This document shows, one piece after another, positions 32,488-37,135 of a DNA stretch of 64,000 nucleotides. A program made the position numbers and the translations under genes. The stretch is from Escherichia coli (GTDB taxonomy: Bacteria > Pseudomonadota > Gammaproteobacteria > Enterobacterales > Enterobacteriaceae). Numbering within the stretch: position 1 is the first letter of the stretch; each line of letters opens with the position of its first letter. The notes below the pieces were generated by a model. It searched no databases. It saw only the letters and a program-made list of their open reading frames with translations, and was not told where the DNA came from. Where the stretch lies: the NCBI RefSeq assembly GCF_003334255.1, contig NZ_QOWU01000009.1. The stretch is one strand, 5' to 3'.

Positions 32488-33822
32488 TTAATGTGCGTTA
32501 GACGCGGTGTGGTTATCCATTGAGTGGCTCTGGCGCTCGTGCATTTTGCGAGCGTAGAACATCAGGATAATCAGGCTGACGATGAAGGTACCTGCCAGCT
32601 CGAAGGAGCTTGCGCCCATCAGCGCGATGAAGCAGAACACGCAACCCAGTACAGAGCAGATCAGGCTGACAAAGTTGCGGATGTTAACGCCTTCAAAACG
32701 AATCAGGTCAACGCAAGAGTAGAAATACGGCAGCATAGTCAGCAGTACTGCGATACCGGTCAGTTCACCGAACAGGTCAGATGCTTTACCACCGGCAGAG
32801 TTCATCAGAGTGATAAGGATCATCAGGGCAGTCATTTTCACTGCAGCCAGCAGCAGACCTTTTTTCGGAATACCGTTGCTGTCGACTTCACCATAAACTT
32901 TCGGGAAGTTACCGTCGTTAGCGGCACGTACACCTGCCTGGCCTACCAACATCATCCAGGAGCCCAGAGAAGTCAGGCACGCAAAGGCGGTGAATGCAGA
33001 AACCAGCGGCGCAGCCCAGTTACCGAGGATAGTTGAAGCACTGATTGCAAACGGAGCACCGGAAGCCGCCATTACAGAAGACGGATACATACCGGAAAGC
33101 ACCTGAGTCGCAGCGATGTAAACAATACCTGCTAAACCAGTACCCAGCATGGTTGCCAGCGGAACGGTACGTTTCGGGTTTTTAACCATACCAGTACTTA
33201 CAGCTGCGGATTCAACACCCACGAAGGCCCACAGGCAGAGCAGAATACTTTTAATGATCGCATGACCATCAGTGGTATCCGCAGTATTCCAGTTAGCTGC
33301 ATAAGTTGCTGCATCAAACCAATGCCAGCCAACAATAGCAGTCATCACCACAGGAATAAGAACCAGCACCAGACCAATAGTGGTTAAACGGCTTACCCAA
33401 GTACCGCCGAGCATATTTACAAAGGTAAATACCCAGACGATAGCAATACAGGCGATACCCGCCGGAACAGGATCATTTAATACTGGGAAGAAGGTGGAAA
33501 GATAAGATACAGCGGTAATACCAATCGCCAGGTTACCAATCCAGTTAGCATGGTAATAAAGAACACCTGTCTGAAAACCAAATGCAGGGGAAATTTCTCC
33601 GGCATAAGCAATTGGGCCACCTTGTTGCGGGTTTTTTGTTGCCAGTCGGGCATATACATACGCCAGCGACATTGCACCAATAATAGAGATAATCCAACCC
33701 CAGATAGCAATACCACCGATACTTGCTAGGTTCGCAGGTAATAATGCAATACCGCTCCCCATCATATTACCGGCAACAACACCGGTACAGGCAAATAGCC
33801 CGATCTTCTTGGCAGAACTCAT
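32488..33822 (-). CDS. cadB: Lysine:cadaverine antiporter CadB (444 aa)
   Basis: 444-aa APC transporter paralogous to AdiC. Confidence 0.95.
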   Translation of the reverse strand: MSSAKKIGLFACTGVVAGNMMGSGIALLPANLASIGGIAIWGWIISIIGAMSLAYVYARLATKNPQQGGPIAYAGEISPAFGFQTGVLYYHANWIGNLAIGITAVSYLSTFFPVLNDPVPAGIACIAIVWVFTFVNMLGGTWVSRLTTIGLVLVLIPVVMTAIVGWHWFDAATYAANWNTADTTDGHAIIKSILLCLWAFVGVESAAVSTGMVKNPKRTVPLATMLGTGLAGIVYIAATQVLSGMYPSSVMAASGAPFAISASTILGNWAAPLVSAFTAFACLTSLGSWMMLVGQAGVRAANDGNFPKVYGEVDSNGIPKKGLLLAAVKMTALMILITLMNSAGGKASDLFGELTGIAVLLTMLPYFYSCVDLIRFEGVNIRNFVSLICSVLGCVFCFIALMGASSFELAGTFIVSLIILMFYARKMHERQSHSMDNHTASNAH

Positions 33823-34027
33823 GCTCTTCTCCTAATTTCATTTTTGAATTTGGAGTCCGGGTCATGATGTATAACTATTTCCTGACCAGACCAAACTGGC
33901 GATAAGATTACTCACGAAAAAAGGATTAATCCTAAAGATTAGGTGAAATAACACAAAAGTTTCTGTAAGTGAGAACTTGAGGTTTTTTATTAACACATCA
34001 GGATCGCAAGTTGATATCATGAAAAGA

Positions 34028-34044
34028 TAAACATTTAATGTTTA
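34028..34044. promoter_or_regulatory. AT-rich perfect palindrome in the cadBA promoter region (candidate CadC or H-NS site)
   Basis: taaacatt-t-aatgttta, about 205 bp upstream of the cadB ATG; assignment to CadC is not verified. Confidence 0.3.
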
Positions 34045-34081
34045 CAATGGATTGCGTGACATTCTCTGGTTAAATTTATGT

Positions 34082-34112
34082 AATAAAAATTATGCGGCAA
34101 ATAAATTGCCGC
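34082..34112 (-). terminator. Intrinsic terminator of cadC
   Basis: Hairpin gcggcaa-ataaa-ttgccgc (34094-34112) followed on the minus strand by ataatttttatt. Confidence 0.65.
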
Positions 34113-34186
34113 AACATATTATACCAACAGGAACATACAAAAACTCAACAACAAATATTTCCGAGCATAAATCAACCCGGAGTTAC

Positions 34187-35725
34187 TTATTCTGAAGCAA
34201 GAAATTTGTCGAGATAAGGTACAACATAAGGAACAGAAGTCTGGAATATACCATTTTCAATCCAGTAAAGGGTGTTTGCCCCTGGGCGTAAATTAAAGGC
34301 GGTGAGATATGCATCAGCTGCTTCCCGGTTCATCCCCTTCATTTCATAAACCTTGCCAAGCAACACATAATTTAGCCAGGACATTTCAAGATCAATGCCA
34401 GTATTTATCGCCTGGTAAGACTCATCTGTTTTACCTTTTACCAGAGCACTGACCGCTTTTATTTGATATATAATGGACAGGTTGTTCAATTCCGGCAGTG
34501 TAACAATGTTATCTATTTCTGTGTTCAGTGCTGCTAATTGTTTTTCATCTAAAGGATGTTGAGAATGGCGCACGATATCAACTAATGCTTTTTCTGCTCT
34601 CGCGTAGGTAAATTCTGGGGATGATTGAACAATCTCACCTAATAATTCACTGGCACGGTTCAATGATTTATCATCGCCATGCAGTAAATAATCATGTGCC
34701 TGATAAAAATTAGTTAATAACGCACCACGATGCGGCAAAATTTTCTGGAGCGTCTCCTGCATTCGTTGTGGCCACGGTTGGTTTAACGCTTTTGATAAAC
34801 TCTCCAGTAAATCATTTTGAATCGCCAGCTGATTACCGTTAGTGATGACATAACGTTTATCCAGCATGGTTGAACCATCTGCATTGTCTACCAATTTTAT
34901 CGACATAAAGCATTGTTGAGCACGGTATTGGCGCTGATTAACAAACGCAATAGATAATGTTTTACCGGAACTGCTCGGTTCATCAATGTTGTAGTTGATT
35001 TTGTCATGCACCATAAAGGTGGAGAAGGTGTTAAGTGATGTCGCCACCAAATCACCCACGCCTATCGCGTAAGAGAGCTGATACGGGGAACTCCAGCTGT
35101 TACAACTTTTATTTACCATATTAATGTCAATATCGCGTGGATTGAGCAAAATACGCGATTTGCTCATAGGAAGACGTGTATCAAGACTTGAAAACGCTAC
35201 CAGTGCTACACAGATACCTAACGACAACAGGAAAAAAAACCATACCCAAAAGGTAGTGAATCGTTTGCTTTTAACTGGGGATTGTTCAGGTGGCGTTGCG
35301 GTGTTTTGAATGTTAAGACTGTGGGAGGGAGAATCTGTGGCAGGAACCGCCTCTGGTATAGGGGGAGGCGAAGATAGCATTATTTCCTCTCCCTCTTCTT
35401 CGCTGTACCAGATAACCGGCACCATTAATTTATAGCCGCGCTTTGGTACAGTAGCGATATAGACAGGACTATCTTCATCATTATCTTTTAATGACTTACG
35501 TAGTTCTGAGATACTCTGCGTCACAACGTGATTGGTGACAATACTTCTCTTCCAGACATTATCGATAAGTTCATCCCTGCTAAGTACTTCGCCACTGTGT
35601 TGAGCAAAGAAAACCAGAAGATCGATTAATCTCGGCTCAAGGGTAAGTTGACGCCCATTGCGGCTAATTTGGTTTATGGACGGAGTAACAAGCCATTCGC
35701 CAACGCGAACTACAGGTTGTTGCAT
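34187..35725 (-). CDS. cadC: Membrane-integrated pH-sensing activator CadC (512 aa)
   Basis: N-terminal winged-helix OmpR-like DNA-binding domain, single TM (FWVWFFFLLSLGICVALVAF), periplasmic sensor domain. Confidence 0.95.
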   Translation of the reverse strand: MQQPVVRVGEWLVTPSINQISRNGRQLTLEPRLIDLLVFFAQHSGEVLSRDELIDNVWKRSIVTNHVVTQSISELRKSLKDNDEDSPVYIATVPKRGYKLMVPVIWYSEEEGEEIMLSSPPPIPEAVPATDSPSHSLNIQNTATPPEQSPVKSKRFTTFWVWFFFLLSLGICVALVAFSSLDTRLPMSKSRILLNPRDIDINMVNKSCNSWSSPYQLSYAIGVGDLVATSLNTFSTFMVHDKINYNIDEPSSSGKTLSIAFVNQRQYRAQQCFMSIKLVDNADGSTMLDKRYVITNGNQLAIQNDLLESLSKALNQPWPQRMQETLQKILPHRGALLTNFYQAHDYLLHGDDKSLNRASELLGEIVQSSPEFTYARAEKALVDIVRHSQHPLDEKQLAALNTEIDNIVTLPELNNLSIIYQIKAVSALVKGKTDESYQAINTGIDLEMSWLNYVLLGKVYEMKGMNREAADAYLTAFNLRPGANTLYWIENGIFQTSVPYVVPYLDKFLASE

Positions 35726-36011
35726 AATAGAAACTCATTCGAAAAGGGAATGATGCAATGATAATTGCCACAACCTATTTTTACCATCTATAGATGGGTT
35801 TATTTACATATTATTGGTGAATGCAAGACGTTATTTTTACCAGCCATAAACTTCTTGATTACATAGTATTACGAAAGGATTTTACTGAGAACCAGAAGTA
35901 ATATTCCTTACCATCAAAATTCATCATCTTTGCCAAAGAAAAATGTTCAGAAAATAATCCATGGAAAATTGTCCGGAGCACTTACTATTTTAATGGATTG
36001 TTAGTCTTTGC

Positions 36012-36335
36012 ATGAGCAAGCGAACTGATACATTTCTCTTTGTTCTCATTCAGAAAATCTCATCAGTCGCCGTTCAGACCGGTGTTGTGCTTTATGGATG
36101 CGTTACGCTCCTGATGACGTCATTTGACGTTCAACAGCATCACGGGGCCGCACGACATTTCACGTCAGTTAGTGCTATAGCTCAGGAACAAATTTTCCCG
36201 AATTGGGATATGCCCGCAAATTGCTGGTGATGTGGGGAGAATCTGGTTGAGTTCGGTAGAATTGATTTGGAGGCAGAACGCTTAAATCGTGGCGTCCTGA
36301 AACGAAAAACGGACCTCCGTGGAGGTCCGTTTATA
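36012..36335 (+). pseudogene. Degenerate C-terminal fragment of a P4-family tyrosine integrase, next to pheU
   Basis: 72-aa ORF plus out-of-frame continuation; HGAARHFTSVSAIAQE...FP..D resembles the integrase HGLRS.AST...E.GFP.D box and CGENLVEFGRIDLEAERL resembles the region just after the catalytic Tyr, with the Tyr not conserved; alignment made from memory. Confidence 0.45.
36301..36329 (-). terminator. Intrinsic terminator of pheU
   Basis: Hairpin cggacctcc-gt-ggaggtccg (36310-36329) followed on the minus strand by tttttcgtt, 13 nt after the tRNA 3-prime end. Confidence 0.8.
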
Positions 36336-36341
36336 TGAATT

Positions 36342-36417
36342 TGGTGCCCGGACTCGGAATCGAACCAAGGACACGGGGATTTTCAATCCCCTGCTCTACC
36401 GACTGAGCTATCCGGGC
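36342..36417 (-). tRNA. pheU: tRNA-Phe (anticodon GAA)
   Basis: Reverse complement reads GCCCGGATAGCTCAGTCGGTAGAGCAGGGGATTGAAAATCCCCGTGTCCTTGGTTCGATTCCGAGTCCGGGCACCA: 76 nt, cloverleaf, encoded CCA. Confidence 0.97.
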
Positions 36418-36523
36418 AACGGGGCGCATTAAACCGTAATCTGCACATCTCGTCAACCTAATTTCAGTAAAAGCGATTCAACTGCTTAAGATTGCGGCAA
36501 ATCGCTTCTTTTCTGTGTTTCTG

Positions 36524-37099
36524 TCAGGTCAATGCACCACCCTGGCGGCAGCGGGCGAAGCGCAGGATATCTTCCGCCAGCCGATGTGCAGTGTCGACAT
36601 CCGCCTGGCTACGATTCACCAGCATTCGGCTTAAACAGCCTTCCAGCACCAGTTCCATCTGCTTTGCTACCATCGCCGGATCGTCAACTTCCAGTGTGGT
36701 TAACAGTTCGTGGGTGAAATCGTAGGCCGCGCTTTTTTGCTGATCGGCCAGTTGATGAATAGGGTGGCCAGGATCGGGATAAAACGTACAGGCAGCGATA
36801 AATAGACAGCCCGGATAGCGGTTGTTTTTAACGCACTCCGATAACGCCTGATAACGTGCCAGCAGCTTTTGTTCGGCGGTTTGCGTTTCGTCCAGCATCA
36901 GCTGACGACGCCAGACATCTATCTGTTGGCTAAGATAACGCAGCGCATCGTAGAGGATTGCCTCTTTGTCTGGCCAGAAGCGGCGTAGCTCGTCCAGTGG
37001 ATAATCCACACGTTCAGCAACCATCTCCAGCGTGGTGTTGGCAATCCCTTGTAATTCTAATAATTTCAGGGCTTCTCCCAGTACATCTTCACGTTGCAC
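36524..37099 (-). CDS. yjdC: TetR-family regulator YjdC (191 aa)
   Basis: GTG at 37097-37099 preceded by GGAGG ([31 protein letters not shown], TetR HTH); track ORF is 8 codons longer from an upstream GTG lacking a Shine-Dalgarno. Confidence 0.8.
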
Positions 37100-37135
37100 G
37101 CTATTTTCCTCCGTCTTTCCCACTGCAAGTGTCGT

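Follow-up and report, generated by a model that had tools for sequence, protein, structure and literature searches.

Does the short spacer that separates cadC from the tRNA gene pheU in Escherichia coli hold the remains of an island integrase, and if so, on which strand do they lie, how old are they, and what became of the island? In the window, the whole 64-kb stretch of E. coli DNA that was analyzed, the minus-strand genes are arranged here in the order cadB, cadC, pheU, dicD (yjdC), and dsbD. The cadC gene occupies 34187-35725 (-), with its start codon ending at 35725, and dicD occupies 36524-37123 (-), with dsbD beyond it. The pheU gene, which encodes tRNA-Phe(GAA), was located at 36342-36417 (-) by ARAGORN, by the Rfam tRNA model (68 bits), and by the MG1655 annotation; an E-value scan of 35600-36520 with Rfam gave no RNA family besides tRNA. 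The distance from the end of the cadC start codon to the pheU 3' end at 36342 was 616 bp (35726-36341), in agreement with the roughly 615 bp given in a preliminary description of the locus. The spacer and its flanks were 100% identical to E. coli K-12 records, and the positions of cadC and pheU gave an offset of 4,326,209 from the window to NC_000913.3.

Some further features of the flanks were recorded. The gap between dicD and pheU is only 106 bp in K-12. In E. whittamii (L005 10668-12683) a 671-aa ORF, absent in K-12, lies between these genes; the same applies to Escherichia sp. E1V33 (L006) and to many other genera, in which the tRNA gene is found about 1.5-2.3 kb after dicD. In the conserved region upstream of cadC there is an imperfect direct repeat of 34 nt (35759-35792 and 35815-35848; 71% identity, spacing 56), both copies of which contain TTTTTACCA; a role in the regulation of cadC, or as its promoter, is possible. 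IS1 was inserted in the cadC-pheU spacer of some strains; the records noted for this and for the unusual match of NCTC9967 described below are NZ_OY754443.1 and NZ_LS483303.1.

Anatomy of the integrase remnant

The intact 420-aa integrase adjoining pheV in strain UTME-7 (L004) was used as query and reference. This protein contains the domains Arm-DNA-bind_3 (residues 3-87), Phage_int_M (98-192), and PF00589 (209-383), with the HGFR box at 341-344, and it aligns with phage P4 Int at 55% identity over 97% of its own length (E 4e-152). Comparison with the 64-kb window by tblastn gave a minus-strand match (E 9e-8), which consisted of two blocks in two frames: 36144-36061 (-), corresponding to residues 359-391, and 36059-35988 (-), corresponding to residues 397-420. 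The frame-repaired C-terminal peptide showed 62% identity to residues 359-420 of the reference by BLASTP (E 6e-20), and the proposed resemblance of the spacer to the C terminus of a P4-family tyrosine integrase was thus borne out, with significant similarity to a recombinase. When the repaired 56-aa peptide was searched against NCBIfam there was no significant match; the only hit had an E-value of 0.076, far under the curated cutoff, and the peptide was too short for this search. Alignment with the island-bearing pheV flank, a check that the preliminary description had suggested, was also positive. One blastn block, 36417-36185 (-), matched pheV and the tRNA-to-int spacer of L004 at 89% identity (E 1e-91), and a second, 36152-35868 (-), matched the final ~65 codons of int, its stop codons, and about 115 bp beyond at 69% identity (E 9e-37).

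From pheU towards cadC, the first part of the island-type DNA is the left-end (attL-side) segment between the tRNA and the start of int (36179-36341, minus strand), which was delimited by blastn and by alignments to L004 and has 12-nt and ~22-nt deletions in comparison with the intact pheV island. The remnant itself begins 164 bp 3' of pheU on the same strand, and the same layout was seen in L004 and other loci. Local alignment (L004 1876-1966) placed int codons 1-8, which encode M-A-L-T-D-A-K-I in the intact gene, at 36155-36178 (-); the start codon is ATA in K-12, and ATG is kept in E. whittamii and Escherichia sp. 8794 (L007). Directly after codon 8, a deletion of about 1 kb has removed codons ~9-353, together with Arm-DNA-bind_3, Phage_int_M, and most of PF00589 including the HGFR box, and codons 1-8 are all that survives of the arm-type DNA-binding and central domains. 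Codons ~355-420, which cover the end of the catalytic domain and the C-terminal tail and form the body of the pseudogene yjdQ, were identified at 35988-36152 (-) by tblastn, blastn, and BLASTP. This piece has gained one nucleotide (+1) near 36119 and has lost 16 nt at 36100/36099 and 14 nt at 36060/36059. The 16-nt deletion took the V-R-A-A-Y codons including that of the catalytic Tyr378, as had been suspected from the apparent loss of this residue, and with the HGFR box inside the large deletion the catalytic domain is incomplete.

The tandem stop codons of int, TAG TAA (35982-35987, minus strand), were found by reading and alignment and are identical to those of the intact pheV-island gene. 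They are followed by DNA from downstream of int (35868-35981, minus strand; blastn and multiple alignment) with ~69% identity to the pheV island. The homology to island DNA stops abruptly at ~35868, and the remaining region upstream of cadC (35726-35867, minus strand) had no island likeness. The interval originally assigned to the feature, 36012-36417, therefore missed the last 24 bp of the coding part of the remnant and the whole of the int-downstream DNA, to 35868.

The data showed that the int reading frame is not intact, with ATG changed to ATA, indels of +1, -16, and -14 nt, and in-frame stops. With ~82% of the gene deleted, three breaks in the frame, and neither the start codon nor the catalytic Tyr retained, the remnant cannot be an enzyme. 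On these alignments it is very probably the relic of a P4-family tyrosine integrase, a dead gene identical with the pseudogene yjdQ, and the decay pattern suggests that it encodes nothing. The closest intact integrase examined was only ~69% identical at the DNA level.

The integrase fossil beside pheU is already known as an annotated pseudogene and is not a new observation. In MG1655, yjdQ (b4654) is located at NC_000913.3 4362191-4362353 (-), which corresponds to 35982-36144 (-) in the window, and is the same object with the same coordinates and strand. In other genomes PGAP gives it the name 'tyrosine-type recombinase/integrase; frameshifted; incomplete; missing N-terminus', and of the E. 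coli genomes among the matches listed, almost all bore this label at the matching position. A search by name in a limited literature collection gave no match to yjdQ. However, the annotation comprises the C-terminal piece only; codons 1-8 at 36178-36155, the int-upstream island DNA, the pheU terminator, and the ~115 bp past the int stops all lie outside it.

The old island, the pheU terminator and the cad segment

The locus was compared across 80 species by a DicD scan of species-representative genomes, which gave 80 loci. Among these loci, the fossil followed by cadC was confined to Escherichia, where E. whittamii, Escherichia sp. E1V33, and Escherichia sp. 8794 carry it.

The intrinsic terminator of pheU was located at 36301-36332 (-) by a terminator scan and as inverted repeat I5, with an 11-bp stem at 36332-36307 and a T run after it. 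Directly after E. coli pheU lies AATTCATATAAACGGACCTCCACGGAGGTCCGTTTTT, a sequence that was also seen behind tRNA-Phe at every locus with a P4-type int after it. This combination of an island-type hairpin with a P4-type int was found at pheV of L004 and in Leclercia, Trabulsiella, Klebsiella, and Raoultella (L052, L065, L078, L084). In about 50 other Enterobacteriaceae its place after pheU is taken by another hairpin, the native one, CTATTTAAAGAACCCAGCCTATGGCTGGGTTTTTGC. Since the island-type hairpin tracks the P4-type int and differs from the native one, we infer that the terminator of E. coli pheU was derived from the island. The fossil island thus appears to supply the working terminator of pheU, which would plausibly be the sole part of the old island still in use. 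In Citrobacter amalonaticus S646 (L012 6011-6047), an island-type terminator was found after tRNA-Phe with no P4-type int in the 7.7 kb downstream, and this locus may be a comparable fossil in another genus.

These observations point to a history in which, in an ancestor of the genus Escherichia, pheU acquired an island by integration at its 3' end. The native sequence downstream of the tRNA would have been replaced by island DNA, which brought its own terminator hairpin and an int gene co-directional with the tRNA. As the alignments show, a single deletion of ~1 kb removed int codons ~9-353, and small indels specific to each lineage followed, among them the 16-nt deletion that in the E. coli sequence took the catalytic Tyr codon.

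We also looked for the far end of the old island. A search of the 64-kb window with the 23-mer of the pheU 3' end, allowing up to 6 mismatches, returned only pheU itself, and a pheU 17-mer with up to 3 mismatches gave no second copy. With up to 4 mismatches the 17-mer gave one site with 4 mismatches (9688-9704), which is at chance level, as shuffled sequences gave 0-1. The direct repeat of the pheU 3' end for which the preliminary description had proposed a search was therefore not present in the 64 kb beyond chance level. No relic of the native enterobacterial pheU terminator, or of the conserved box after it, was found within the window. As neither an old attR nor the displaced native terminator was recovered, the integration event is read from one end only. 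The remnant has int directly 3' of the tRNA, as in a GI-pheU-type island, but lacks the far-end attR; attR repeats at pheU belong only to newer islands, in other strains.

The remnant belongs to the same family as P4 Int and the intP4-type integrases of pheV and pheU islands (GI-pheV, papGII PAIs), and shares with them the 3' position next to tRNA-Phe and the orientation; the tRNA-to-int spacer, as noted, is 89% identical to its pheV counterpart. However, the remnant is fixed in the species, whereas intP4-type islands vary between strains. K-12 has other cryptic P4-like (CP4) elements and integrase fragments, which are also decayed and located at tRNA or tmRNA sites. These other CP4 elements keep recognizable cargo and usually att repeats, whereas the remnant beside pheU has kept neither.

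That the cargo is gone, as had been stated, was an unproven assumption, as the 36 kb downstream retain neither an attR nor the native terminator of pheU. Beside this reading stands a second, in which the cad segment would itself be DNA of the island zone, such that cadCBA, perhaps with dtpC and lysU, would be the surviving domesticated cargo of the pheU island or of a tandem island whose attR has decayed. In its favor, int points toward cadC, island homology ends 142 bp short of the cadC start, and no attR intervenes. Moreover, cadC adjoins pheU in Escherichia only, among the 80 species, and this restricted adjacency indicates that the cad segment may sit in island-derived territory. In Enterobacter, Kosakonia, and Phytobacter (L024, L035, L043, L055, L057, L075, L079), yjdF lies within ~0.2-0.5 kb of pheU and is followed by proP, genes that are 17-30 kb away in E. 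coli: 17 kb separate pheU from yjdF (18719-36341), containing cadCBA, dtpC, lysU, yjdIJK, dcuSR, dcuB, and fumB, and proP is ~30 kb off. The stretch downstream of pheU is, as judged from these gene orders, a lineage-specific mosaic. The G+C content of cadC and its upstream region (34000-36000) was 38-41%, in comparison with 51-53% on the dicD/dsbD side of pheU, but low G+C by itself is weak evidence for cad as cargo. Against this reading, the window held no far-end att repeat and no displaced native terminator, and the abrupt end of island homology at 35868 also fits a deletion endpoint; that position may be either a deletion endpoint or a module boundary. On balance, we regard an origin of the cad segment as island cargo as possible but rather unlikely.

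The antisense ORF and the age of the remnant

The preliminary description had taken a 72-aa ORF, with a frameshifted continuation, as the integrase remnant. This ORF does exist, at 36012-36230 (+), but the homology to integrase lies on the minus strand at 36152-35988, and the ORF is best described as a chance open frame antisense to the remnant. Searches of the 72-aa ORF against Pfam and NCBIfam gave no match, so that the domain search that had been proposed failed for the plus-strand ORF, and similarity to integrase was obtained through the minus-strand tblastn and BLASTP comparisons. In a single BLASTP comparison between the 72-aa ORF and the intact integrase, only a 20-residue match was found (E 0.006), which fell in the central domain and not at the catalytic end and was judged to be chance.

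We also considered whether the ORF at 36012-36230 is a real small gene. The frame is uninterrupted in both K-12 and Escherichia sp. E1V33, and a sigma-70-like hexamer pair lies upstream of it at 35930-35958 (+). However, the promoter scan showed no enrichment (1 promoter-like site found, 2.3 expected from shuffles), the ORF is without a protein family, and the MG1655 record has no annotation of it. Indels shorten the frame to 42-43 aa in E. whittamii and Escherichia sp. 8794, and the region changes at about the neutral rate, with indels. A genuine gene on this strand is therefore very improbable.

The remnant itself, read on the minus strand as a dead integrase gene, was then followed through the genus. 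The junction of the large deletion and int codons 1-8 were common to K-12, E. whittamii, Escherichia sp. E1V33, and Escherichia sp. 8794, while the small indels differed by lineage. Among these four lineages, the 16-nt deletion of the Tyr codon was present only in K-12 and Escherichia sp. E1V33; Escherichia sp. 8794 has kept the Tyr codon, TAC, and has a separate deletion of ~40 nt. Identity to K-12 among the Escherichia lineages was 78-92% in the fossil segments and 83-92% at the third codon positions of cadC and dicD. The 142 bp directly upstream of cadC were 90-96.5% identical, above the fossil. The remnant thus drifts at about the synonymous-site, or neutral, rate.

Within the species, at least 80% of the spacer was found in 5218 of the 5426 complete E. 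coli genomes, and with its presence in the other Escherichia lineages this showed that the fossil and the adjoining cadC are fixed and not strain-variable. The deletion junction shared with three other Escherichia lineages indicates that the fossil is old and vertically inherited, and is evidence that it predates the split of several Escherichia lineages. The occurrence of the fossil in several species also argues against recent gene conversion as the source of the similarity to the pheV region. An alternative in which imprecise excision left the remnant only recently, within the K-12 lineage, is scarcely conceivable, since, although pheU islands are gained and lost within E. coli lineages (PMC7686366), the same remnant occurs in those 5218 genomes, the identical deletion junction recurs in three other species-level lineages, and strains with newer islands retain the remnant outside attR; judged from the genomes compared, this distribution already contradicts it.

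In E. albertii NBRC 107761 (L010 10785-11071), island-type DNA with 79% identity to L004 extends from pheU into the first ~42 codons of int, after which similarity to L004 is lost, and the contig ends ~390 bp further, 680 bp past pheU. The decay state of int in this strain differs from that in E. coli.

Present-day islands at pheU

The yjdC-pheU-cadC locus is a major PAI site (PMC7686366; PMC11537424), and pheU of K-12 has been listed without a mobile element (PMC3032704). The genome analyzed here likewise has no island at pheU, as the preliminary description had concluded. The occupancy of the site was examined by searching 5426 genomes with 36000-36480 as query, which covers the dicD side, pheU, and the fossil. 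This query was contiguous in 3810 genomes (70%), which corresponds to the empty K-12 arrangement. It replaced an earlier query, 36250-36480, that had at least 80% coverage in 5201 of the 5426 genomes and did not discriminate empty sites, probably because many islands carry a near-identical stretch downstream of the tRNA. In about 26% of complete E. coli, the cadC-side match stops within the pheU 3' end at an attR of 19-23 bp, with an island between, and the description of this tRNA-Phe gene as an integration hotspot was therefore well founded. Among the matches listed, the cadC-side match of the non-contiguous genomes stops at 36364, and the att core of present-day islands is the last 19-23 nt of pheU (36342-36364); the attR-like repeats are thus real in other strains. 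In NCTC9967, the cadC-side match extends to 36390, an endpoint deeper in pheU than the usual one at 36364 and suggestive of an element whose att core is longer.

The arrangement of an occupied site was seen in strain 23AR0922, in which dicD is followed by a complete pheU, a 392-aa integrase, an island of 35.7 kb, an attR that repeats 19 bp of the pheU 3' end, the fossil, and cadC. The cargo of this island included a Dr/Afa adhesin, Ag43, and CbtA/YeeU and ParDE modules. This order, together with the ends of the cadC-side matches, indicates that the islands of today insert tRNA-proximal to the fossil, which stays beyond their attR.

As a pseudogene that is already annotated and lies at a textbook hotspot for islands, the feature matters little beyond bookkeeping. 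What is gained is a correction of strand, with the ORF recognized as antisense noise, and an anatomy finer than that of the annotation. To these may be added the age of the fossil across Escherichia lineages and the probable island origin of the terminator of E. coli pheU. If the cad segment was indeed cargo, both the position of the lysine-dependent acid-resistance operon in E. coli and the present pheU terminator would go back to an island event, which would be a neat case of an island fixed as core metabolism and would leave current thinking unchanged.
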